A stretch of DNA of 64,000 nucleotides from Candidatus Latescibacterota bacterium (GTDB lineage: Bacteria; Latescibacterota; UBA2968; UBA8231), in NCBI GenBank assembly GCA_965203175.1, contig OZ241867.1:992001-1056000 (forward strand), in the 5' to 3' direction. Under the pieces are notes generated by a model. The model searched no databases, was not told the origin of the DNA, and saw nothing but the letters and a program-made list of their open reading frames with translations. Both the position numbers and the translations under genes were made by a program. Of this stretch, positions 29,138-43,650 are shown one piece after another (the stretch's first letter is position 1; each line of letters opens with the position of its first letter).

Positions 29138-30001
29138 ATGTCCGACGGCGAATTCATCCGGCCCTTTCCCGCGCTCACCCCCGCCCAACGCTATCACCTC
29201 GAAGTCTATGGCTATGTGGTGATTGAAAACGCGATCGAGCAAGACTTGGCGGATCGCCTGCTAGAGGCTATGCTCCGGCTCAAACGCGACCTCCTGTCCA
29301 CCCCAGACCCAGCCAAAGCTAGCGTCCGCAACTGCCGTCTCTCCTCCTATCGGCCTCACTACCTGCACTTTGCCCACATCCTCGAAGCCGATCCCGCGAT
29401 TTTCGCATACCTAACTCATCCGCGCTTAGTCGGCATGGCCGAGGAGCTCGTCGGCGGCAGCGTGCGCCTCGAAGAATCAGAGGCCGTCGTCAACGAGCGA
29501 GATCCGGAGATCGACCTCGCTGCCGCGCCGCGCTACGGCTTCCACACCGGTACCACCCCAGACGTGGGCACGTACGTCGAAAACGGCCTCTACCACTGCA
29601 CCTTTGTCAAAACCCTGACTAACCTCACAGAGCTAGGCCCGGACGACGGCGGCACCGTGGTCATCGCCGGCAGCCACAAAGTCAAATGCGACCGCGAGAC
29701 CATCATCGCGGCGGCGTACGAAGACCCCGCGCTGATCCACCAAGTGGTCGCGCCCGCTGGGTCAACCCTGCTCTTTGGCGAGGCCCTGATTCACGCCACC
29801 GGCCAGATCCGCTCCGACCGCGAGCGCGTCATCGTCATCGGCGGCTATACCCCGCCGATGTTCCAAGCCTGGAACGGCCAAGAGCCGAGCGCTGAATTCA
29901 TCGCCCAAACGCCCGAACCTCTCAAGCCGCTCATTGCCGGCAGCGACAAGTGGCACTGGCAGCAGCGCCGTCGCCGCCTCGACATGCCGGTCGCCCCGTG
30001 A
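29138..30001 (+). CDS. Phytanoyl-CoA dioxygenase (PhyH) family protein
   Basis: GYVVIENA, FHTG, GGTVVIAGSHK, GSTLLFGEALIH. Confidence 0.8.
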   Translation: MSDGEFIRPFPALTPAQRYHLEVYGYVVIENAIEQDLADRLLEAMLRLKRDLLSTPDPAKASVRNCRLSSYRPHYLHFAHILEADPAIFAYLTHPRLVGMAEELVGGSVRLEESEAVVNERDPEIDLAAAPRYGFHTGTTPDVGTYVENGLYHCTFVKTLTNLTELGPDDGGTVVIAGSHKVKCDRETIIAAAYEDPALIHQVVAPAGSTLLFGEALIHATGQIRSDRERVIVIGGYTPPMFQAWNGQEPSAEFIAQTPEPLKPLIAGSDKWHWQQRRRRLDMPVAP

Positions 30002-30996
30002 TCCAACTCGCGCACCCATACTTATTGTTCCTCGGCGACGCCGCCGACCAGCTAGCCGCCAAAACGGCCGTTGGCGTCGCCCAGTGGCGGCCCGAACACT
30101 GCATTGGTCAGCTCCGCCTTCCCGACTGCCACGCCGACCTCGGACTGCCCGACCAAACCCTCGCCGAAGCCCGCGCCGCTGGTGCCCGCACCCTCATCAT
30201 TGGCGTCGCCAATCGCGGCGGCACCATCTCCGACCTCTGGCGCGAGACCTTCCTGCAGGCCATCGACCTCGGCTACGATCTCGCCAGTGGCCTGCACACG
30301 CGCCTTGGCACCATCCCCGGCTTGGCCGACCGCGCCCGCGCAAAGGGCACTCGCCTCGTAGATGCGCGCTTTTCCGACCGCGCTTTTCCCATTGCAACCG
30401 GCGTCAAACGCCCGGGCAAACGCCTGCTCACCGTCGGCACCGACTGCTCGGTCGGCAAGATGTTCACCGCGCTGGCCATTGAGCGCGAGATGCAGGCGCG
30501 AGGCATGGCCTGCACCTTCCGCGCCACCGGCCAAACCGGCATCTTCATCGCTGGGACCGGTGTTGCCGTTGACGCCGTAGTCTCCGACTTCCTCGCTGGC
30601 TCCGTCGAGGTCCTGACCCCGGCCAACCACCCCGAACACTGGGACCTAGTCGAAGGCCAAGGTTCGCTGTTCCACGCCTCCTACGCCGGCGTGTCGCTGG
30701 GCCTCATGCACGGTGCCCAACCCGACGCGCTCGTCCTCTGCCACGATCCCAACCGGCCCCACATGCGCGGCCTACCCGAATACCAACTGCCCGATCTGCT
30801 CGACTGCATTCGCCTCAACGAGCAGTGCGGCCGGCTCACCAACCCGGCCTGCCGCACCGTTGGCATTGCAGTCAACACCTCGCACTTGCCGGAAGACCGC
30901 GCCGCCGAACTGCTCGAAACCATTGAACGCCAAGCCGGCCTGCCCGCAGTCGATCCGCTGCGCCAAGGGGCCGCGCGCTTGGTCGATGCCCTGTGA
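29998..30996 (+). CDS. dgcN: DUF1611 family protein, D-glutamate N-acetyltransferase DgcN-like
   Basis: PYLLFLGDA..AAKTA.G, VGTDCSVGKMFT, RATGQTGI, EGQGSLFH; adjacent to an enolase-family epimerase. Confidence 0.85.
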   Translation: MIQLAHPYLLFLGDAADQLAAKTAVGVAQWRPEHCIGQLRLPDCHADLGLPDQTLAEARAAGARTLIIGVANRGGTISDLWRETFLQAIDLGYDLASGLHTRLGTIPGLADRARAKGTRLVDARFSDRAFPIATGVKRPGKRLLTVGTDCSVGKMFTALAIEREMQARGMACTFRATGQTGIFIAGTGVAVDAVVSDFLAGSVEVLTPANHPEHWDLVEGQGSLFHASYAGVSLGLMHGAQPDALVLCHDPNRPHMRGLPEYQLPDLLDCIRLNEQCGRLTNPACRTVGIAVNTSHLPEDRAAELLETIERQAGLPAVDPLRQGAARLVDAL

Positions 30997-32048
30997 CCCA
31001 CTTCTCCGTCCGCAGCGAGAGCTTCCCTCTCGCCCAGACCTTCACCATCTCGCGCGGAGCCAAAACCACCGCCGATGTCGTCGTCGTCGAACTGAACCGC
31101 GACGGCTGCGTTGGCCGCGGCGAGTGCGTCCCTTACCCCCGCTACAACGAAAGCGTGGCCGGAACCATAGACGCGCTAGAATCGCTGCGCCCACAGGTAG
31201 AAGCCGGCCTCGACGGCTCGACGACTCGACTGAGCGGTTCGGCTGAGCTCACCGTCGAAGCCTCGCCGAAGTCTGAGCTCGCCGAAGTCCGAGCGGCATT
31301 GCAACGCACTCTGCCGCCCGGTGCCGCCCGCAACGCCTTGGACTGCGCCCTGTGGGATCTAGAAGCTAAAATCAGCGACCGCCCTGCCTATGAACTGGCC
31401 GGATTAGCAACACCGCGTCCAATATCGACGGCCTACACCCTCTCGCTCGACGATCCAGAAACCATGGGCCGAGCCGCTGCCCAGCACGCCGACCGCCCGC
31501 TGCTCAAGATCAAACTCGCCGGTCGCGACGATCTCGACCGCGTCGCCGCAATCCGCGCCAATGCCCCAGACTCGACCCTGATCGTCGATGCCAACGAAGG
31601 CTGGTCCGCCGACCAAGTCGAACCGCTCTCAACCGCCCTAGCTCGTTTGGGCGTCGCGCTCATCGAACAACCCCTGCCCGCCGACCAAGACGCCCTGCTC
31701 GCCGAGTTGGAACACCCGGTCCCCTTCTGCGCCGACGAATCCTGCCACACTGCCGCCGATCTCGCGGAACTAGCCGCCCGCTACGAATGCGTCAACCTCA
31801 AGCTCGACAAGACCGGCGGCTTCAGCGAGGGCCTGCGCTTGGCCGCCGAGGCGCGCGCGTGCGGATTGGACTTGATGGTCGGCTGCATGATCGCCACCTC
31901 GCTGGCTATGGCGCCGGCTGTCCTGCTGGCGCAACAAGCCCGCTTCGTCGATCTCGACGGCCCCCTGCTCCTGCAAAAAGATCGGGAACGCGGGCTGCGC
32001 TACGAAGGCAGCCTCCTCCATCCGCCCCATCCTCAACTCTGGGGATAG
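30993..32048 (+). CDS. dgcA: N-acetyl-D-Glu racemase DgcA / L-Ala-D/L-Glu epimerase (enolase superfamily) carrying a 25-aa insertion
   Basis: FTISRG, GRGECVPY, KIKL, VDANEGW, EQP, ADES, KLDKTGG, DLDGP. Confidence 0.88.
   Translation: MTHFSVRSESFPLAQTFTISRGAKTTADVVVVELNRDGCVGRGECVPYPRYNESVAGTIDALESLRPQVEAGLDGSTTRLSGSAELTVEASPKSELAEVRAALQRTLPPGAARNALDCALWDLEAKISDRPAYELAGLATPRPISTAYTLSLDDPETMGRAAAQHADRPLLKIKLAGRDDLDRVAAIRANAPDSTLIVDANEGWSADQVEPLSTALARLGVALIEQPLPADQDALLAELEHPVPFCADESCHTAADLAELAARYECVNLKLDKTGGFSEGLRLAAEARACGLDLMVGCMIATSLAMAPAVLLAQQARFVDLDGPLLLQKDRERGLRYEGSLLHPPHPQLWG
31215..31289 (+). mobile_element. Triple nested insertion of a short palindromic (REP-like) element within dgcA
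   Basis: GGCTCGAC[GACTCGACTGAGC[GGTTCGGCTGAGCTCACCGTCGAAGCC]TCGCCGAAGTC]TGAGCTCGCCGAAGTC = 24+24+27 bp. Confidence 0.75.
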
Positions 32049-32212: not shown

Positions 32213-33208
32213 ATGAGCAACGCACTTCTATTGTTTGCCCAAGGGCTGGACGAGGCCGCGCTGCAACGCGCCGTCCCGCTGCCCATCCGGCCAAAGCAGA
32301 TCGAGCCGTTGGCATGGCTTGGCGACGAGTTCTCGTTTGACTTGCCACCCGCAGCGCTAGAAGGTGCCATAGAAATCCTGCCGTGCCTCTCAGTCGTCCA
32401 CGACGGCGCGTGGGGCTATCAGTTCGCGATAGAATGCGAAACCAAAGCTGGCGATAGCAGCCGGGCCGTCCTCGACCCGATCGGCTCGTTTGTCGAGGCC
32501 GTGCAGTCCGGCTTCAGAACTGGAGCCGAATCAGGTGCGACAAACGAAGTGGTCGCAGCGGAAATCGACCTCTTGCGCATCCACACCCCCTTACAAGCGG
32601 CCACCCTACACCTGCGCGTCCAAGGCGTCGGCCCCACGGCCCCGGCCTTGCTCTCGGTCTCGGTGCGCCGCAAGGGCGCAGTACCCGCTCCGACGTTCAC
32701 TAGCCGAGATATGGCCCTCTCTGTGCCGTCGCAAAGCCAGATGGTTCTGCGGCCCCAATTGGCTTCCCACGTCTGCTCGCCGACCAGCGTCGCCATGCTC
32801 CTCTCCTATTACGGCCATAGCGCGGACATCTACGACGTAATTGCTGAGGCACGCCACCAACCCAGCGGACTATACGGCGTGTGGCCGGCCAACATCCACG
32901 CCGCTGCTCGCCGGGGTCTCTTGGGCTATCTACTGCACTTTCCCTCTTGGGAGGCAGCGCGCACGCTGCTCGACGCGGGCTTTCCCATTGTTGCCTCTGT
33001 CCGCTACGAGGTGGGCGAGTTGAGCCGAGCGGCCATTGAGCGTACGTCCGGGCACTTGCTCGTCGTCCGGGGCTGCTCGGGAGATACCGTACTGGTCAAC
33101 GATCCGGCCGCAGATGCCGAGATCGCACGGGCGTACGACCTAGCGGAATTCTGCAAAGTCTGGCTGGAGCGCAGCGCCGTAGGCTACGTGCTCTTTCCTC
33201 CGTCGTAA
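32213..33208 (+). CDS. Peptidase C39-like family protein
   Basis: SQM...CSPTSVAMLL (Cys), GHLLVVRG (His), VNDPA (Asp). Confidence 0.8.
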   Translation: MSNALLLFAQGLDEAALQRAVPLPIRPKQIEPLAWLGDEFSFDLPPAALEGAIEILPCLSVVHDGAWGYQFAIECETKAGDSSRAVLDPIGSFVEAVQSGFRTGAESGATNEVVAAEIDLLRIHTPLQAATLHLRVQGVGPTAPALLSVSVRRKGAVPAPTFTSRDMALSVPSQSQMVLRPQLASHVCSPTSVAMLLSYYGHSADIYDVIAEARHQPSGLYGVWPANIHAAARRGLLGYLLHFPSWEAARTLLDAGFPIVASVRYEVGELSRAAIERTSGHLLVVRGCSGDTVLVNDPAADAEIARAYDLAEFCKVWLERSAVGYVLFPPS

Positions 33209-35095: not shown

Positions 35096-35550
35096 CTATC
35101 GTTCCCGCTTTCTATATACCTTTTCTATGGCGTCTTGCAACAAGCGGTCGAAGTTGACCAAGCGGTTGTAGCGCCGACGGTAGGCATCAACCCAGTTCAA
35201 CGTCCCTCTGTAATATGTCGGCACTGCGTTCATCCGCACGATCTCAGTAGCCATCTCTTCTACGGTGCAGACTAGCTTTATGGAGCTCATCTGGTCGAAT
35301 TCGGCCAGTTCCCGTATCCCGATCGAATCGAAGGAGATGACCGACTTACCATGATGTATCGCTTTCAAGGCAAAAATGCCAAATGCTTCCACGTCTGTGA
35401 TCGGGATCACGCGAAGGCACGCCGCGAACTGTACCCTCATCTCAGCATTCGACAGAGATATTCGGTTGAGGTTCAGGGGTCGTCCGACCCTTTCATTGGC
35501 TCGCATGAGTTTCTTCTTATATGCGGCCTCCGCTGGGTACGCGGATAAAA
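35096..35550 (-). pseudogene. Glycosyltransferase (GT4-like) C-terminal remnant
   Basis: VIP..VEAFGIFALKAIHHGKSVI...GIRE resembles the E-x7-E GT4 motif with the second Glu changed to Lys; N-terminal domain absent. Confidence 0.55.
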
Positions 35551-35552
35551 GC

Positions 35553-35813
35553 TCAATCCGCCCTCCGCTTGTCAGCGACGTACTCAGCCAGCACTTCTAC
35601 TGAGTCAAACAGTTCGGCAGTCAGTTCGTCGTCTTCGACGGTGATGCCGAATGCCTCCTCTATGGCGGCGACGATCTCTAAGGTGGCCACTGAATCAAGA
35701 TCCATGCCCCCGCCGAACAGCGCCTCGTCGTCGGGAATTTCGGCAGGGATCACGTCCAACTCAAGCGCAGTGACTATCAGGCACTTGATCTGCACTCTCA
35801 GGCGTTCTGACAT
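35553..35813 (-). CDS. Acyl carrier protein
   Basis: 86 aa, acidic, GMDLDSVATLEIV phosphopantetheine Ser motif, IEEAFGITV. Confidence 0.92.
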   Translation of the reverse strand: MSERLRVQIKCLIVTALELDVIPAEIPDDEALFGGGMDLDSVATLEIVAAIEEAFGITVEDDELTAELFDSVEVLAEYVADKRRAD

Positions 35814-37696
35814 GATTCAGGCTCCTCGGCAAAGTAGTTAACCACCGTATCTACCATCCGCTGCTGGCCTTCCTCTGAGAGAATGGACACCGCCGGTAAG
35901 CTGAAGCGATCCTCGAACCGATGCAGGATACGTACGATCTCTTCCGTAGTCATCGGACGCGGCTTGACGAAGGTTCGCCCGTAAGCAGCGCGGATGTGTT
36001 TTTCTTGGTTGCTCATCGCCAATAGCAGGGTCGGTGCCTTGGCGAAAGCGCGCAGGCAGTCGATGGTGTCTTGGATATACTCGTCGTCATCGATGCTGTT
36101 GACCGTGAGGATACATGCATCCGGCTTAGTGCCCAGCAGAAAGGCCATAGAGGTCAAAGAATGGGTGCGGTGTTCATGCACATCGTAGGGAATGGTGCCT
36201 GACTGCGAGCCAACCAAGATAATATCGGGCCGCTTCTGCTGGCTGAGTTGCCGCAGTTTGTAGTCCAGATAGGGGATGTAGTATTGCAACGGCAGCGACA
36301 CATTAGAGGCGTATCCCATGGGAAAGGCTAGGTCCATGCCAAACAAGGCCGCATGATGCTCGGTGCCGATCTGACCGACCGTGTAGCCGAGGTGCAAAAG
36401 GTGGCGGCGCAGGATCAGTTGTAAGGTGAACTTGCCCTGTTGGGCACTGGTGCCAAACACTCCGAGCACCGGCACGTCGACCGGACCATAGGCAGGCTCG
36501 GCTTGGAGTGCTTGCTCGATGTCGTTGGACGCGACCGAGGGATACGTCAGATGCAGCCCCTTTTTGCGGGCAAGATCATACAGGTCGCCGTATGTGTCTT
36601 GGGGCACGACGAGAAAACTGAAGACGTGGCAGTCGTGCTCCAGTGCGGTCTCAATGGCCGTACGTAACACGTCTTGCTTGCCGATCCGTCCTAACTGATC
36701 GACATAGCCGAGGATTAGTGTATCCGCCTCTCCAAGGATCGAAGCAAGCCGGGGCCGGATATGCACACCCATGTCGGGCAAACCCAGCACCTTACCCGCA
36801 TCCTGGCCCACTAGCCCCTTGCCCACCGGGTCAGCGATACCCGTAATCTCAAAGGCGAGCAAGTCTTGCGCCCGAACCAAGGCGTGCATTTCCTTATTGA
36901 ACGGGTAGAGCGCCGCCTTCTGAATCCAAGTAAAATTTGAGGTGTTGGTTGGAGGCTTCGACACGGCCACCGCGCATGGACGCGTACCTAGGAGTAACTC
37001 CGGCGGCTCTTTCAACCCATTGGCCTGTAATATCTTACGCACTTGTTCCAGTGGTGCCCTTGGATGCGCTTGGCGAATCAAGGCGACGACGCCGGTGATA
37101 TGAGGTGCGGCAAAGCTGGTACCAGATACCATCAGATGTGATGGATCGTTCCAGCAGACCCGCTGGGTATCCCCCCGGGCGACACATTCGATTGTGTGTC
37201 TTGGACGGTAATAATACCCATAGCGTCCGCGCACCTTTCCTCCAGTAACGCCGATGACGTCTGGAAAGACCGCCGGATAGCTCTCGCGCCCGTCGTTGTG
37301 CTCAGCAGCGACAAGGATAACTCCGGCTTCGCGGGCTTGGCGGCAGACTTTAGCAAGTGCATTGCGGAAGGAGACATCGGTGGTGCCCAAGCTGAGGTTG
37401 ACCACATCCATTCGGTGCTCAATAGTCCAGCGAATCGCCGAGAGTAGGGCAGTACCATCGGTTCTCAGAGAACCGTCGAAGATGCGGACATCGTAGAGGG
37501 CCACTGTTGGCGCGATCTGACTGATGATGCCCGCGCAAGCCGTGCCGTGACCAGCGTCAAAATCAGCTTGCGGAAGTACCGAATCCAAGATTACCTCATG
37601 AATCGCGCCGATTTTTTCGTGTGTCGGGTCAATACCTGAGTCGATGATGGCAACACGTACTGGATGATCCGTTTTCGGTGGGTTCGTCAAGAGCAT
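35798..37696 (-). CDS. S8 (subtilisin) serine peptidase fused to a DUF1611/TIGR04066-like P-loop domain
   Basis: Triad IIDSGID / GHGTACAG / SGTSFAAP, no signal peptide; C-terminal YPFNKE..GKGLVGQDAG, GVFGTSAQQGKFT, QIGTE, GSQSG. Confidence 0.8.
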   Translation of the reverse strand: MLLTNPPKTDHPVRVAIIDSGIDPTHEKIGAIHEVILDSVLPQADFDAGHGTACAGIISQIAPTVALYDVRIFDGSLRTDGTALLSAIRWTIEHRMDVVNLSLGTTDVSFRNALAKVCRQAREAGVILVAAEHNDGRESYPAVFPDVIGVTGGKVRGRYGYYYRPRHTIECVARGDTQRVCWNDPSHLMVSGTSFAAPHITGVVALIRQAHPRAPLEQVRKILQANGLKEPPELLLGTRPCAVAVSKPPTNTSNFTWIQKAALYPFNKEMHALVRAQDLLAFEITGIADPVGKGLVGQDAGKVLGLPDMGVHIRPRLASILGEADTLILGYVDQLGRIGKQDVLRTAIETALEHDCHVFSFLVVPQDTYGDLYDLARKKGLHLTYPSVASNDIEQALQAEPAYGPVDVPVLGVFGTSAQQGKFTLQLILRRHLLHLGYTVGQIGTEHHAALFGMDLAFPMGYASNVSLPLQYYIPYLDYKLRQLSQQKRPDIILVGSQSGTIPYDVHEHRTHSLTSMAFLLGTKPDACILTVNSIDDDEYIQDTIDCLRAFAKAPTLLLAMSNQEKHIRAAYGRTFVKPRPMTTEEIVRILHRFEDRFSLPAVSILSEEGQQRMVDTVVNYFAEEPESCQNA

Positions 37697-38763
37697 CGTT
37701 TTTTTAATCTGGTTTCACACTGCAAGAGAACCTTTTCTAATATACTTTTCTCTTCAAGGGCTAGTTCTTCTAATTCCTTTTTTACATATTTTATAGATGT
37801 ATCTACTTCATTCTTTTTTTTATATCCTAAGAAAATCCTGAGCATTATCAAACGTAGGTTCGCAACTTTCTTTTCTATTTCAGCATACTTAATTGACAAC
37901 TTTTCAGATGGATCAATATAATCTTTATTTTCCATGTATATAAGTCTGTTCAACATACATTTTTTATGTTCCCATAGTATGTGAATCAATCGAATATCAT
38001 ATCTATGTTTTTTATGTAACAAACAATAAATAAGATAAGAGTATGTTTTCATACCATATATACCATCTTCTGGTGTATCTAATATACGAAATTTTTCAGA
38101 AGTATTATTCGATTCTATATAATCTCGAAGTTGCTCCGAGACAAGATATAGATCAAACTCATAGTGTTTGTTATTTTTATATTTTAATAGACCTATTTTA
38201 GCCATATGATTAGGTGAGTAACTAACTTTCATATATGCCTTTTCAAGGTCTGAGTACTCGATTGTTATATACGCCTTTTTAAAATCGGAGAAATTTAATT
38301 TGGAAGAAACATATTGGCCCATTTTGTTGTATCCGGCAGTATCGAATGTTTCATAAGATAAATCATAGCCATGTATCAATGTTTCATGTATGTATTTTCT
38401 TTTTTCATAATTCGACTTATTAGGCATATAAAACTCATTTAAATATAGCTGTATATAGTAGTTATTATCTATACATTTAATGACAAAGTGAACAATATCC
38501 TCATTTACAAGGGAAATTAAATCACGATCTAACCAGCGTGTTTCCAGTAATGGTGCAGGCAAAAGTCTGTTATTAGGAGGTCGATAAAAATCGATTATAG
38601 GAGTTCCTTTTTGAGTGTGTTTTTTAGAAAAATAAATCTGGATATGTTGGCTGTAGAACCAAGGTAAATATACCTCATTTGTCGCCAATATTGATAAAGA
38701 GAATACAAAGCCTTTTATTGGTGAATTGAGTTCAACCGCAAGTATTTTTCTTTTCTTTTTCAT
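37687..38763 (-). CDS. Very AT-rich BtrH-N/papain-fold-like protein
   Basis: PWFY..HIQ, IDNNYY...NEFYMP...YIHETLIHGYD...F...GY pattern recalled from BtrH-N-like proteins of Firmicute biosynthetic clusters; RBS AAGGAG. Confidence 0.55.
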   Translation of the reverse strand: MKKKRKILAVELNSPIKGFVFSLSILATNEVYLPWFYSQHIQIYFSKKHTQKGTPIIDFYRPPNNRLLPAPLLETRWLDRDLISLVNEDIVHFVIKCIDNNYYIQLYLNEFYMPNKSNYEKRKYIHETLIHGYDLSYETFDTAGYNKMGQYVSSKLNFSDFKKAYITIEYSDLEKAYMKVSYSPNHMAKIGLLKYKNNKHYEFDLYLVSEQLRDYIESNNTSEKFRILDTPEDGIYGMKTYSYLIYCLLHKKHRYDIRLIHILWEHKKCMLNRLIYMENKDYIDPSEKLSIKYAEIEKKVANLRLIMLRIFLGYKKKNEVDTSIKYVKKELEELALEEKSILEKVLLQCETRLKKRCS

Positions 38764-38927
38764 TTCCTGCTCCTTTCGTGCCAGCCTCCTCACCGTCGGT
38801 CTCTTGGCTGATCCACCGGCGTCTGCGTACCAAACGCAATCGGCGAACGACCTCTTCGGGGGGTTATGAGTATAATAGAAGCTCCGGGTGCTTGGGAAGA
38901 TGTATCTGCATCAGTTATCTGGACCGC

Positions 38928-40643
38928 TTAAGAGGTAGCTTTCGATTCTCCGAAAAGTGATACGTAAACGGGACAATTCCTCATCAATTCCTCGTGACGG
39001 CCAACTCCGACGATACTGCCTTCATCTAGCACAATAATGCTATCTGCATCTATAAATGTAGATAGACGGTGAGCAATTGTGATGGTGGTCCGTCCCTGAT
39101 AATAGGAGCGTAGAGCTGAACGTATCTTGGATTCGGTCTCGTTATCGATAGCTGACGTAAACTCGTCGAGAATGAGAATCGATGGATCTAGCAATAGCAC
39201 TCGAGCCAGAGCCAGACGCTGCTTCTGTCCTTGGGACAACTGAGCTCCTTTTTCTCCTATGTCAGTCTCGTACCCCTTGGGTAGTTCCGCGATAAAGTCT
39301 CCGGCTCCAGCAATCTCTGCCGATTGTTCGACTAAGGCATGTGAACATTCAGGTCTGCCGATTGTCAGATTCTCCCATACCGTTCCAGCGAAGAGAAATG
39401 GATCTTGCTGCATGAATCCAATCTGCTGCCTCAACGAATGAAGGTCGGCTCGGGAAGTATCCATCCCGTCGATGTAAACAGACCCCGTCTGTGGGTCGTA
39501 GAAACGAGGTATCAACTGCGCTAGCGTCGTCTTGCCCGCTCCGCTCCTACCGACTAGAGCAGTGTTTGTTCCTCCTTCTATGGTTAGATTGATGTTTTTC
39601 AGTACATAGTTTTTTTCTAGATACCCAAATGAAACGCTCTGGAACATGACTGTGCCTTGCTTAACGCTAAGCATTTCTCCTCTCATTGGAGATCTTATCT
39701 CTGGCACCGTATCAACAACCTCGAAGTAGCGACCTAGATGCACTCGGAGCACCGGAATCTGCATGGCTAAATCCAGTAGTGATGTTACGGGATTCGAGAT
39801 GTATCCTACATAGGCCGTAAACGCCATATAGGTTCCCAAGCTGAGTTCGCCTGCCAGAATCCTCGTCCAACCGTACCAAGTGTACACCAATACTGCCATT
39901 GCACGCAGAACTGTAAGAGCAACTCCGGCTACTGTCTGCCCTAGGTGCATTCGGAGTTTGACCGTGGCCGACTCCAAGGTTAGATCGCGAATTCTTTGAA
40001 GAAAAATGCTTTCTAAACAGAGTGCTTGTACGGTTCTAATACCTGAGAGAAATTCAATCCTGTGTGATGAGGCCCTGGCATCCAGCACGGCAGTCTGGCT
40101 AGTTTTTTTTGCTATAAATCTCGATATACCAACCGCGATTGCTGCATCCAGAGGCAGCGCGGCAATACTTAGCAAGGCCAATTTCCAATTGATCCAAAAT
40201 AGAATAGGCGGGAAGATGAGCAAGTTGACAACATTCAAGGTACCGCTCATGAGTAATTGAGTCATTCCACCAGCACTGCTCAAGCCATCTCTGGATCGAG
40301 CTGTAAGTTCGCCTACTTTTTTCTTATCAAAGTAGCTGAAGCTCAAGCTGCTCAGATGTTGATATAGTCCATAACCAACCCCGATTCCTACACGCATACT
40401 GAGGTTATGGTCAAAATAGCCGCGCAAATGGCTGATCAATCCCGTCATTACTGCCACGCCGACATTGAAAACAAGGACGAATTCCAGCAGGTTGACACTC
40501 TTGGATGGGTAAACATCGTCGATAAGAATCTTCGTGACGTAGGGTGGTATCAAGGCAATCAGTGCTAAAAGGCCACTCACGGCTACAGACCTTATCATTA
40601 GCCCCTTATACGCTTGGATCAGTGTAAATCCTTTACCGATCAT
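38928..40643 (-). CDS. ABC exporter (TMD+NBD), no C39 peptidase domain
   Basis: TM region, GRSGAGKTT, LSQGQKQR, ILDEFTS, IAHRLST; 571 aa. Confidence 0.92.
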   Translation of the reverse strand: MIGKGFTLIQAYKGLMIRSVAVSGLLALIALIPPYVTKILIDDVYPSKSVNLLEFVLVFNVGVAVMTGLISHLRGYFDHNLSMRVGIGVGYGLYQHLSSLSFSYFDKKKVGELTARSRDGLSSAGGMTQLLMSGTLNVVNLLIFPPILFWINWKLALLSIAALPLDAAIAVGISRFIAKKTSQTAVLDARASSHRIEFLSGIRTVQALCLESIFLQRIRDLTLESATVKLRMHLGQTVAGVALTVLRAMAVLVYTWYGWTRILAGELSLGTYMAFTAYVGYISNPVTSLLDLAMQIPVLRVHLGRYFEVVDTVPEIRSPMRGEMLSVKQGTVMFQSVSFGYLEKNYVLKNINLTIEGGTNTALVGRSGAGKTTLAQLIPRFYDPQTGSVYIDGMDTSRADLHSLRQQIGFMQQDPFLFAGTVWENLTIGRPECSHALVEQSAEIAGAGDFIAELPKGYETDIGEKGAQLSQGQKQRLALARVLLLDPSILILDEFTSAIDNETESKIRSALRSYYQGRTTITIAHRLSTFIDADSIIVLDEGSIVGVGRHEELMRNCPVYVSLFGESKATS

Positions 40644-41386
40644 GCATGTGCCACCATCGTTACGTATTCGTACCCAATCCTCTCGGCCAAGACGAAAAAG
40701 TTATACGCAGCGTGTATTGCGAAGCATTCGGTAATTGACCCGCGTTTCTCCATGACATAGCACGTAACTAAGCCGAGCAACAACGCACCTGCCATCTGAG
40801 CCGGAGGATCGTGTAGCAGCGCGAAGACGGCTGTGCATAACAGCACACTGAGAACCCAAGAAAGTTTTGTCCGCAAGGTTTGATATAGAACGCCGCGGAA
40901 GAAAACTTCCTCATGTAGCGGTCCAATCAACACAGCGAGCATTATGTTCTGAATCCCACGGAAGAGCGAAATGCTGAATTCTCCATCAACCCAAAAAGGC
41001 ACCACATCTTTGGGCCAGAGCAATGCGCTAGGTATGGCATAGACAGTTGCTATCGAAAAACCGATGAGACAGGCTCTGAAGATTCGAGATACTGATGGCG
41101 GTCCCAAGCCGATAGAAACGAGGGAAAGACCACAGCATCTCTTCAACATCACGCTTATTACCCAAAGCGAAAACACAGATATGGCGACTTCGTCAAGGCT
41201 AAACGAAACATCATCAAGCTGAAAAGATAGGGGCCAAAAGAGATCAATGACCACGAAGAGAGCGATGGGAACACAAAAGGCCAACGAACCACCAACTAGC
41301 ACTATTAATCCACTGGAAAAACTCAATGCAGTAATGCCTCTATTGGCGCACACTCTGGACGACCTTTCGCTAGTGAATAGTCTCAT
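40640..41386 (-). CDS. CPBP (CAAX/Abi) family intramembrane metalloprotease
   Basis: EEVFFRG, FALLH, HAAYN motifs; multiple TM helices. Alternative GTG start at 41416. Confidence 0.88.
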   Translation of the reverse strand: MRLFTSERSSRVCANRGITALSFSSGLIVLVGGSLAFCVPIALFVVIDLFWPLSFQLDDVSFSLDEVAISVFSLWVISVMLKRCCGLSLVSIGLGPPSVSRIFRACLIGFSIATVYAIPSALLWPKDVVPFWVDGEFSISLFRGIQNIMLAVLIGPLHEEVFFRGVLYQTLRTKLSWVLSVLLCTAVFALLHDPPAQMAGALLLGLVTCYVMEKRGSITECFAIHAAYNFFVLAERIGYEYVTMVAHA

Positions 41387-41394
41387 TGTACGTT

Positions 41395-41854
41395 GTGGAG
41401 TGCTAGAATGAGTCACCTTACGATATGCGGTTCAGGTTGCCTAGTGTTGACAGCTCACTCGTTTTCTCTGTCCTCGTCGTTCCACCATTCTTTTACAGCT
41501 TCTTTCCCCTCATGCTTGGCGATATCTTGGGCTACTGACGTTATACCTTTGACTACTCCTTTTCGTATGGTATTTGCAAGACCGCCTATTGGGCTGAAAC
41601 CTGGGTCAGACTCTATTTGATCCAGAGCACGGATCGAATCTGAGCGTGCCCAGGCTGCCGCAGCCAGCGAATCCGTGTGGGTAGCTGCTACCGAGCCCGG
41701 TACAGCCCCACAGGTAGGGGAATCGTACTCTAACTCACAGTGGTAAGCCAGTATCAGCCCATTTGGCTGTTGGTGTGTCGGCTTGAAAAGCCGCTTTTTT
41801 ATTGTCATCAGCATCTCCTTTCAGAGTTGGTTAGACGTCATCCTAGCACTCCAC
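41395..41854. repeat. 17-bp inverted repeat pair bracketing the candidate precursor gene
   Basis: GTGGAGTGCTAGAATGA (41395-41411) and TCATCCTAGCACTCCAC (41838-41854), one mismatch. Confidence 0.75.
41455..41808 (-). CDS. Candidate RiPP/bacteriocin precursor peptide
   Basis: Strong RBS AAGGAG 6 nt before the ATG; basic leader MTIKKRLFKP...LILAY, two Cys, then GG and an amphipathic helix; lies between HlyD and the CPBP/ABC genes. Confidence 0.6.
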   Translation of the reverse strand: MTIKKRLFKPTHQQPNGLILAYHCELEYDSPTCGAVPGSVAATHTDSLAAAAWARSDSIRALDQIESDPGFSPIGGLANTIRKGVVKGITSVAQDIAKHEGKEAVKEWWNDEDRENE

Positions 41855-41879: not shown

Positions 41880-43151
41880 TCACAGATTAATCTCCGCTTG
41901 GGTACTCGCCATCTCCGCTGACTCTCGCAAATAGAAGTCATGTCTCCCCATCGGCTCCGCCGTCTGCAACAGCTTCTTCCACAATAGCTCTACGATCCGT
42001 CCCCTCTCCACCACCACCTTGACTTCGGCATTCATCCCATACGCCAGCGAATACACCTGCTTCCCATCCCACACCTGTGGATCGAGAATCGACACCTTTA
42101 TTGGATAGACTGCGCCCTCTACGGAGTTTCCCACCACCGGTGCAGCCGACGCCTCTTCCACCGTGCCTTCAAAAACCTTGTATTCCGTATGCGGAAAGGC
42201 TTTCACATACAGACGAGCCAGCTGCCCGATCTCGATCTTGGGCAAGTCGATCTCCTTGACCATAATCCGAGCCTGCCACTCCTCGTTTCCAGCCACTTCG
42301 AGCACGGTTTCCCCGCTTTGGAGACGATCTCCCATCCGTTGCTCCAACTGACCCGTCAGCACGATGCCGGTCGCCGGTGCCCAGAGCGTGTTCTTGGCTA
42401 GCTGGTTTTCTAACCGCAGGCGTTCCTGCTCTATTTTCTCGCGCTGTTTTTCCAAGGTGTGGAGTTCGGCTGTTCGCCCTTCTACGGCCTGAAGCCGCTG
42501 CTGGCTCTGCTCCAGTTCGGCTTCAGCGTCCCTCAGCCAAGCATTCCCCAGCCGCACCGGCAGCAATTGATCCAACGGCTGGCGGACCACACTGACGGAC
42601 AACAGACCAGCCGAGTAAATAGTTTGTTCGGCCACGACCTGCTCTAGTTGGATGCGCATCCGCTCTACTACCAGCTTGGCGTGGGAGACCTCGGCTTGCC
42701 GAATGTTCCGCTCTTGCTCCATCTGTTGCTGAATGGCTCGCTGCTGGCTTTGGTTTACTTCGAGGTCCTTTTCGGCTTGCTGGAGTTGGATCCGCCAGTC
42801 GGTATCATCCAGCGTGACCAACGGCTCCCCCTTCTCTACCTGATGTCCCTGTCGGACGTGTATCTGCTGGATAATCCCCGCAATCTCGGCCTTGACTCGA
42901 TACCGATGTCGAGGCTCAATGACCCCTTTGCTTTCCACGGTCATATCCATACTGAAATACCAACTCAGGACGCCAGCGAGCACCAGCAAGCACCCCACCA
43001 ACACCAGAATCATCAAGAGAAAGGAGCGCACGAAACGGAAGCCCGGCCCGTGGAATTCTTCCCCTATACTCAGGACATTACTACGGCCATCCTGCACCGA
43101 GGAACGTTCGTTTTGCACAAATGCTTGGGTTTCAGCAGGCAGAGACGTCAT
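41880..43151 (-). CDS. HlyD family secretion membrane-fusion protein
   Basis: N-terminal TM, GIIQQIHVRQG..V.KGEPL lipoyl half, long coiled coil, APATGIV, GMNAEVKV. Confidence 0.92.
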   Translation of the reverse strand: MTSLPAETQAFVQNERSSVQDGRSNVLSIGEEFHGPGFRFVRSFLLMILVLVGCLLVLAGVLSWYFSMDMTVESKGVIEPRHRYRVKAEIAGIIQQIHVRQGHQVEKGEPLVTLDDTDWRIQLQQAEKDLEVNQSQQRAIQQQMEQERNIRQAEVSHAKLVVERMRIQLEQVVAEQTIYSAGLLSVSVVRQPLDQLLPVRLGNAWLRDAEAELEQSQQRLQAVEGRTAELHTLEKQREKIEQERLRLENQLAKNTLWAPATGIVLTGQLEQRMGDRLQSGETVLEVAGNEEWQARIMVKEIDLPKIEIGQLARLYVKAFPHTEYKVFEGTVEEASAAPVVGNSVEGAVYPIKVSILDPQVWDGKQVYSLAYGMNAEVKVVVERGRIVELLWKKLLQTAEPMGRHDFYLRESAEMASTQAEINL

Positions 43152-43457
43152 ATTCTAACTCCACACGCTGAAACGCTTCTCTCTCCGACTGAATAGTCGG
43201 AGCCAAACGGATCTCCGGCGCACGAACTGCCCAAGGTTCCTTTTATATAAGGAAAGTCCACATAGTTGGAGCTTTTGAGCAACCGCGCATACTGGCACAT
43301 ACGCGGACGCAGCGGCTTCCAAGGCATACTGCACGGCGGAAATAGAGCCGTACAGACCCCTGACAATCCGACACCGAATGAATCGCTGCGCTTCAGCGAA
43401 GCAATCATCCGGCCCTTGATGGAGCTTAAGAGAGCGTAGCCTAACGGCCGAAAATGA

Positions 43458-43473
43458 GGGGGGGGGGGGGGGG
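43458..43473. repeat. Poly-G tract (G16)
   Basis: 16 consecutive G at the upstream edge of the peptide cluster. Confidence 0.9.
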
Positions 43474-43650
43474 CTAAGTCTTTATTTTTCAATCGTTTGC
43501 AACAAATTGCGGAGTCTTGGGACTGGCAGCAGGATGTCGTCATCGCGGCAGGCTTTGCTAGCGGCCACATCTGCGTCCGGTCCACGACGCGGCGATTGCG
43601 GCCTACGGCCCGTTTGCCTAATGTGAGTATCTCTCCGATGTGGAATAGCG

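Follow-up and report, generated by a model that had tools for sequence, protein, structure and literature searches.

A subtilisin fused to a DUF1611-fold P-loop module and paired with an acyl carrier protein marks a putative peptide maturation and export system in Candidatus Latescibacterota and other phyla

The closest catalogued system to the locus described here is the unfused TIGR04066/TIGR04069/subtilase cassette of CcpM-type (TIGR04068) clusters for Cys-rich peptides. Excerpts from a report on Paenibacillus polymyxa SacP23 describe a CLI_3235-type cluster that contains TIGR04068, TIGR04066 and TIGR04069 proteins together with a separate subtilisin-like leader protease (PMC10731318). The same excerpts offer 'immunity' or an ATPase subunit as a guess for TIGR04066 (PMC10731318), a role that is unsupported by the fold matches given below. 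DUF1611/TIGR04066 proteins and partners resembling acyl carrier proteins (ACPs) have long been catalogued in peptide-maturation clusters without an assigned chemistry, and a literature search, made largely among papers outside subscription journals, returned no biochemical study of TIGR04066, TIGR04069, DUF1611, CLI_3235 or CcpM. Here we describe a 632-amino-acid (aa) protein in which a subtilisin is fused to a module of DUF1611 fold. It is encoded in a 64,000-nucleotide (nt) stretch of contig OZ241867.1 from a Candidatus Latescibacterota bacterium (assembly GCA_965203175.1, positions 992,001 to 1,056,000 of the forward strand); this whole stretch is called the window, and all coordinates are its own. 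On balance, the fusion is probably the signature enzyme of a widespread and uncharacterised system for the maturation and export of peptides or small proteins.

As far as the excerpts on the CLI_3235/CcpM cassette go, the window resembles it in bringing together a DUF1611-fold protein, an ACP-related protein, a subtilisin-type leader protease and an ATP-binding cassette (ABC) exporter in one cluster. Fusion loci of Lachnospiraceae and Melioribacteraceae also share with it radical S-adenosylmethionine (SAM)/SPASM maturases and Cys-rich small open reading frames (ORFs). Unlike the cassette, the window encodes the protease and the TIGR04066-like protein as one polypeptide, no radical SAM protein was found among its cluster genes with Pfam and NCBIfam, and its candidate precursor, of about 119 aa, is not a CLI_3235 peptide. 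Since the Paenibacillus cassette, as excerpted, holds TIGR04066, TIGR04069 and a separate subtilase, the fusion joins two proteins of one pathway. The fused form can in this sense serve as a Rosetta stone, tying leader proteolysis to the chemistry of carrier proteins. The elements concerned are as follows.

35798..37696, minus strand: fusion protein, 632 aa, comprising an S8 subtilisin, a linker and a DUF1611-fold module (ORF, Pfam and NCBIfam matches, AlphaFold model)
37013..37660, minus strand: S8 protease domain (aa 13-228), a QhpE-like minimal subtilisin with the triad D19/H50/S194 (PF00082, NF049966, fold matches, conservation)
35828..36934, minus strand: DUF1611-fold module (aa 255-623), a degenerate Rossmann-like N-domain with an invariant P-x-x-K-E followed by a P-loop domain (G415, T416, G421, K422, T424) (fold matches, PDB profile search, conservation)
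35553..35813, minus strand: ACP, 86 aa, overlapping the 3' end of the fusion gene by 16 nt, its ATG preceded by a GAGGAG ribosome-binding site (PF00550)

The region 35798..37696 is exactly one ORF on the minus strand; the plus-strand reading contains stops throughout. The original prediction, made from the DNA alone, of a subtilisin joined to a DUF1611/TIGR04066-like domain holds for this single 632-aa ORF, which matches both Peptidase_S8 and DUF1611. The Peptidase_S8 (PF00082) match covers residues 13-224 (E 5.6e-26; 91.9 bits, above the Pfam cutoff of 21.8), and the best NCBIfam match of the domain is QhpE (NF049966; E 1.7e-42, 145.2 bits, model positions 1-212 of 219). QhpE removes the leader from a peptide crosslinked by a radical SAM enzyme during the maturation of quinohemoprotein amine dehydrogenase. 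The fusion is like QhpE in having a minimal cytoplasmic subtilisin without a propeptide, and unlike it in carrying an extra module of 380 aa and in lacking Qhp partner genes in the window cluster. A weak match to the PatA/PatG-type maturation proteases (TIGR03895, E 1.9e-07) was also found with NCBIfam.

An AlphaFold model of the fusion was built on a 41-sequence alignment (predicted local distance difference test (pLDDT) 84.6, predicted template modelling score 0.58) and compared by VIA-align with about 48,000 PDB representatives. Residues 1-240 superpose on subtilisins with Z of about 25, lanthipeptide and nisin/epidermin leader peptidases among them, and the protease half also superposes on PatA (Z 23.2) and on the PatG macrocyclase (Z 20.5). 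D19, H50 and S194 stand in subtilisin order and are invariant in 41 aligned homologues with identity down to about 30%. The catalytic Asp lies already at residue 19 and the N-terminus is hydrophilic, so that neither a signal peptide nor a propeptide could fit ahead of it. The intact triad and the missing signal peptide, both claimed earlier, are thus borne out, and the subtilisin half is, judged from its sequence, a cytoplasmic enzyme with intact catalytic residues. A search of the window's own genome returned a single copy of the fusion.

In the second half of the protein, residues 406-612 match PF07755, the C-terminal P-loop domain of DUF1611 (E 2.2e-10; 40.7 bits, above the Pfam cutoff of 25), and TIGR04066 matches from end to end (residues 260-623 on positions 2-360 of the 361 in the model; E 7e-32, 110.8 bits). 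The N-terminal, Rossmann-like DUF1611 domain, PF17396, is unreported for the fusion at E <= 0.01; many homologues, however, carry it as a precomputed annotation, and the structural match extends over the two domains. In the AlphaFold model a disordered or flexible linker (residues 236-253) separates this module from the protease, and residues 250-621 superpose on 2g0t_B (TM0796; Z 29.9, root-mean-square deviation 3.0, 318 of 339 residues aligned), on 2obn_A (Ava_3511; Z 29.0) and on 7xrj_A, titled 'N-acetyltransferase DgcN' (Z 24.5, root-mean-square deviation 4.0, 306 of 331 residues aligned, 21% identity). The next P-loop proteins, MinD, dethiobiotin synthetase and a Mrp/MinD-like protein, score Z of about 14. 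When the profile of the C-terminal module alone was searched against the PDB, 2g0t (E 2.2e-11) and 7xrj (E 0.002) were found; the whole-fusion profile returned only subtilisins among the 60 matches listed, and Foldseek with the whole fusion placed subtilisins at ranks 1-36 and 2g0t at rank 37.

A comparison of the predicted structure with DgcN had been set beforehand as the test of the original prediction, and the module does superpose on 7xrj, as on the other DUF1611 structures. Profile comparison of the module with DgcN (hhalign) gave a probability of 95.3% (E 2.3e-08, 271 columns). The three motifs that had been proposed to parallel those of DgcN are all present in the fusion, and each is paired by this comparison with its DgcN counterpart, so that the resemblance reflects homology and not chance. 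The two proteins share a two-domain fold, a P-loop of the form G-T-x(4,5)-G-K and a conserved Gln. They differ in that the fusion carries a protease and pairs with an ACP instead of the racemase DgcA; the DgcN hidden Markov model (HMM; NF041892, cutoff 480) gave no match to the fusion at E <= 0.01.

The whole fusion has 1238 relatives at E <= 0.001 among 8000 candidates scored. Both Pfam domains are present in all of the best 120, which are 56-92% identical to it; those among them that carry names are labelled just 'S8 family serine peptidase' or with an epimerase-family placeholder. Searched among representatives of 50%-identity clusters, the profile of the C-terminal module matches 2130 at E <= 0.001, of which 776 reach E <= 1e-30. 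Fused forms (at least 550 aa, with the module starting near residue 230-300) make up 128 of the best 150 representatives, and another 11 are proteins of 340-429 aa. In the HMM alignment of the 128 fused representatives, the protease triad is kept almost throughout (D19 in 121, with seven gaps; H50 in 126; S194 in 127). So are the residues of the module: T416, Q426 and E446 are found in all 128, K422 and Q498 in 125 each, and K268 and E269 of the N-domain motif in 125 and 124, respectively. The polar residues outside the P-loop (K268, E269, Q426, E446, Q498 and D536) are each kept in 124-128 of the 128. Such near-invariance in the protease and in the module implies selection for enzymatic function in both halves.

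The fusion gene is present in genome records of Latescibacterota, Gemmatimonadota, Melioribacteraceae/Rosettibacter and Lachnospiraceae, and in one short Thermoplasmatota contig. The closest records are from Latescibacterota (78-84% identity), and one Acidobacteria contig matches the protease part of the fusion only. The neighbourhoods compared below are those of 43 loci, namely the window and 42 related loci, and individual related loci are referred to by L numbers. One Latescibacterota genome (record OZ242005.1) carries the fusion gene in two pieces about 1.09 Mb apart, with residues 2-415 in L005 and residues 415-629 together with the ACP in L025. The break lies just before the P-loop, and L025 keeps the DgcN-side flank of the window. 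A rearrangement or an error of assembly could account for this split.

The carrier protein recurs with the fusion. The window's ACP scores above the cutoff for PP-binding PF00550 (33.7 bits against 20.8), and its NCBIfam matches are all of ACP type, including the petrobactin carrier AsbD, each under its own cutoff. An HMM of the ACP was searched in all six frames of the 43 loci at a threshold of E <= 1e-22, and the ACP was found in 35 of them, the window counted. In 26 loci its start falls between -34 and +54 nt of the fusion's called stop; in four further loci (L014, L022, L033 and L034) it adjoins a fusion that the gene caller missed or split. One gene stands between fusion and ACP in L035-L037, and the ACP lies just upstream in L038-L039. 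Of the eight loci outside the 35, L020, L026 and L031 stop where the fusion does or within it, L005, L027 and L042 have only truncated or partial genes, and L040 and L041 have weak ACP matches 3-7.5 kb away. The phosphopantetheine-attachment serine (Ser41) is invariant in all 35 ACPs. Taken together, the gene order and this serine identify the ACP, at the level of sequence, as an obligate and translationally coupled partner of the fusion. The window's ACP was unmatched by TIGR04069 at E <= 0.001, and one Lachnospiraceae ACP reached 22.6 bits against the cutoff of 70. A complex prediction for fusion and ACP scored 0.02 against a mark of 0.32, a value with no bearing either way on binding. An antisense ORF overlaps the ACP gene in seven loci.

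Upstream of the fusion, on the same strand, the window holds a CtaG-like gene and an export cluster, so that the order is HlyD, 119-aa ORF, CPBP protease, ABC exporter, CtaG-like gene, fusion and ACP.

37687..38793, minus strand: 368-aa protein of CtaG/CcbD/AziU3-like fold (papain-like N-domain and helical C-domain), its stop overlapping the start of the fusion by 10 nt (model)
38928..40643, minus strand: ABC exporter, 571 aa, permease and ATPase without a C39 peptidase domain (PF00664, PF00005; HlyB-type, 401.6 bits)
40640..41416, minus strand: CPBP/Rce1-like intramembrane protease, 258 aa (PF02517, E 1.6e-18)
41455..41814, minus strand: tentative candidate precursor, 119 aa, with an N-terminal Leu-x-Lys-Pro motif and no family match in Pfam or NCBIfam (alignment, motif scan)
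41880..43151, minus strand: HlyD-type membrane-fusion protein, 423 aa (PF13437, TIGR01843)

A report on CtaG assigns this ligase to the papain-like kind, gives it a Cys-His-Asp triad and, in addition, a helical C-domain, and has it forming amide bonds between carrier-bound substrates (PMC12865890). The same source treats BtrH and AsbE as CtaG homologues that use carrier-bound donors and free amine acceptors, and has CcbD acylating an amino sugar from a carrier-bound donor (PMC12865890). The 368-aa protein of the window matches no Pfam or NCBIfam family, and the BtrH_N scores obtained with Pfam stay under the cutoff. The model of the 368-aa protein (pLDDT 73.4) is closest in the PDB, along almost the full chain, to CcbD (7yn1_A, Z 16.3, 286 residues aligned), AziU3 (7wuw_C, Z 16.0, 289 aligned) and CtaG (9qvj_A, Z 15.9, 273 of 307), and the next match (Z 10.2) covers the helical part only. 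The likeness to CtaG, BtrH and AsbE extends to the bipartite fold and to a position beside a stand-alone carrier protein, and it concerns the neighbour and not the fusion. A sister subfamily in other loci has an invariant Cys, matches AziU3 by sequence (E 6.5e-06) and is related to the window's subfamily by hhalign with a probability of 95.2%.

A CtaG-like gene of either subfamily is present in 17 of the 43 loci. In L009 and L013 the CtaG-like domain is fused to a peptidyl carrier protein and a non-ribosomal peptide synthetase condensation domain, directly after the ACP. In L019 a transglutaminase core is joined to the ACP itself. Altogether, 18 of the 43 loci have a partner of the CtaG-like, condensation-domain or transglutaminase kind, and 25 loci are without any separate transferase if the fused core of L019 is counted as one. 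At 30.3%, the GC content of the window's CtaG-like gene (37687-38793) is below that of the fusion gene it overlaps (56%) and of the window as a whole (59%), whereas homologues of the gene at other loci are within about 0.06 of the GC of their own fusion genes. This suggests a replacement copy gained recently. The ABC, CPBP and 119-aa genes, at 47-51% GC, are also under their flanks.

The ABC cluster occurs in 33 of the 43 loci and HlyD in 22. Other clades add thioredoxin-like and YknW-like proteins or TPR proteins, or radical SAM/SPASM and B12-dependent radical SAM enzymes; the radical SAM/SPASM neighbours in L029 and L036 reach 160.2 and 81.3 bits against TIGR04068, whose cutoff is 500. The precursor-like small ORFs vary likewise, being Cys-rich and 49-133 aa long beside radical SAM enzymes and acidic and about 120 aa long in Latescibacterota. 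Seven candidate precursors from two phyla, including the 119-aa ORF of the window, share invariant M1, L9, K11, P12, Y24 and C26, and a motif scan found the Leu-x-Lys-Pro start in further plus-strand cluster ORFs of L002, L008, L010, L023 and L039, against a background of matches that includes eight on the minus strand and several inside large genes. The ORF at 41455-41814 may accordingly be read, tentatively, as a precursor with a shared leader. Among these ORFs, two of 85-89 aa (L008:347 and L010:1955, plus strand) carry the N-terminal Leu-x-Lys-Pro motif, continue with a long hydrophobic Gly/Ala-rich stretch and end in Cys. The candidates L002:5408 and L023:7573 (plus strand) share C-x-x-C-H-x-x-S-[KR]-T-H-Q, with a CxxCH resembling a c-type haem-binding site, and the L023 candidate has a weak CCP_MauG match (E 0.0061). 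Just upstream of HlyD, a 145-aa ORF (43148-43585) without a family match is conserved in five loci; either a coding sequence or a conserved regulatory region would explain this.

From the domain identities, the conservation of catalytic residues, the gene pairing and the folds, we infer the chemical steps, the cargo and the precursor as follows. The QhpE-like subtilisin would be a cytoplasmic leader peptidase that cuts a ribosomally made precursor, for which the 119-aa ORF is the candidate in the window. The DUF1611-fold P-loop module and the co-translated ACP would handle a phosphopantetheine thioester, most likely in charging the carrier. The carrier-borne acyl unit would then be passed to a substrate amine, most simply the alpha-amine exposed by leader cleavage; the transfer would be made by the CtaG/BtrH-like neighbour in the window and by the fusion itself in loci without such a protein. 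The product would leave through the ABC/HlyD pair. Charging of the carrier is favoured as the task of the module because no adenylation, ATP-grasp or coenzyme A (CoA)-ligase enzyme was found among the annotated neighbours (cluster representatives only) of the 43 loci, because the P-loop Lys is invariant and because separate transferases are present in 18 loci. The original prediction had the fusion cut a leader and cap the freed amine. This idea survives in part: the carrier partner and the carrier-ligase-like neighbours point to thioester-to-amine chemistry, which is likely to be coupled to leader cleavage. The capping may fall to the module itself or to another protein, and the module may load the carrier instead.

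Several observations weigh against this reading. The fusion stays below the curated cutoffs of the two families that name its halves, reaching 145.2 bits against the QhpE equivalog cutoff of 165 and 110.8 bits against 200 for TIGR04066. Where DUF1611 proper has E-G-Q, the fusion family has G-S-Q, with Gly for the acidic residue ahead of the conserved Gln, and T-G-Q-T is replaced by G-T-E-H, so that the active site is not identical to that of DgcN and its chemistry need not be that of DgcN. The CtaG-like subfamily of the window (seven sequences) has an invariant His (H136) and a G-Y-D motif and no invariant Cys, unlike the Cys-His-Asp triad of CtaG, and 26 of the 43 loci are without a CtaG-like gene within 8 kb. 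The precursor assignment is tentative, being drawn from a short motif in seven sequences, and the peptides of the Lachnospiraceae loci L035-L037 are without Leu-x-Lys-Pro. Finally, DgcN, the only characterised DUF1611 protein, is named an N-acetyltransferase and not a carrier-loading ligase (NF041892; title of 7xrj), which favours a module that acts as the transferase.

That alternative, in which the module is a DgcN-like N-acyltransferase that takes acyl-ACP or acyl-CoA as donor and caps the alpha-amine freed by the fused protease, the carrier being loaded by enzymes encoded elsewhere, is a plain extrapolation from the only named DUF1611 enzyme, which acetylates D-glutamate in the catabolism of that amino acid. 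It is a serious rival, which we consider unlikely. The superposition of the module on DgcN (Z 24.5; hhalign 95.3%) speaks for it, as do the 26 loci without a separate CtaG-like transferase, and the diversity of the core peptides between clades beside a constant module fits a sequence-independent target such as a new N-terminus. Yet it gives no role to the CtaG-like, condensation-domain and transglutaminase partners of 18 loci, it must do without a loader among the annotated neighbours of the cluster representatives, and, with acyl-ACP as donor, it leaves no nucleotide for the invariant P-loop Lys; the G-S-Q in place of the E-G-Q of DUF1611 proper also counts against it.

Considerably less probable is a role of the subtilisin itself as a transacylase, in which the peptidyl-O-Ser194 intermediate would be captured by the phosphopantetheine thiol of the carrier to give peptidyl-S-ACP, to be cyclised or ligated afterwards in the manner of PatG or subtiligase, while the module holds or positions the carrier. 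A weak PatA/PatG-type similarity of the protease half (TIGR03895 E 1.9e-07; PatG Z 20.5, PatA Z 23.2) speaks for this role; ordinary subtilisins match the protease half equally well or better (Z of about 25). Condensation domains and papain-like ligases, which take carrier-bound donors, do adjoin the ACP in some loci, but the invariant P-loop would be left without a task. The least probable alternative gives the module no catalysis of its own: as a sensor of a nucleotide or of CoA it would gate the protease, and the ACP-like protein would be just a binding partner or chaperone of the precursor. P-loop domains of the same class are regulatory elsewhere, as in the N-terminal domain of phosphotransacetylase, but the ACP serine is invariant in all 35 partners of the fused form, thiotemplate enzymes have been recruited beside the ACP in 18 of the 43 loci, and polar residues outside the P-loop are kept in 124-128 of the 128 representatives.

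If the module does load or use the carrier, it would be a new type of enzyme in thiotemplated biosynthesis and would point to a hybrid ribosomal/thiotemplated class of products in phyla that have received little study, Latescibacterota and Gemmatimonadota among them. The fullest form of the proposal can be put forward only tentatively and is somewhat doubtful as a whole. It is a thiotemplated tailoring of ribosomal peptides or small proteins in which a DUF1611-type P-loop enzyme would replace adenylation or ATP-grasp enzymes in charging a dedicated carrier, the subtilisin would expose an amine and the carrier-bound unit would be ligated there. Such a route, if true, would make N-capped exported peptides a new class, spread over several phyla, and would give TIGR04066 its first function. 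For its study the fused family offers hundreds of sequences in which candidate catalytic residues are conserved, and a compact set of three genes (CtaG-like, fusion and ACP).

The gene for DgcN itself also lies in the window, on the plus strand at 29950..30996 (NF041892, 523.6 bits against the cutoff of 480), 4.8 kb from the fusion ORF. It is followed by DgcA, the pair spanning 29950-32048. The original prediction mentioned DgcN, 5 kb away, for its parallel motifs; as a functional neighbour of the fusion it is rejected: DgcN is on the opposite strand, as are DgcA and the genes lying from there to the fusion, is paired with DgcA and is near the fusion in just two of the 42 related loci, the close relatives L003 and L025. 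Its proximity is conserved synteny and not function. Between DgcA and a sugar-kinase-like gene, a 331-aa Peptidase_C39_2 protein (32213-33208, plus strand; E 2.8e-17) is conserved with the flank in L003 and L025, with no link to the export cluster. Downstream of the ACP, a 136-aa ORF (35096-35506) matches only the C-terminal part of glycosyltransferases (weak Glyco_trans_1_4 and BshA matches). The related proteins of L002 and L003 have 367-368 aa, and the ORF is probably the remnant of a truncated glycosyltransferase.

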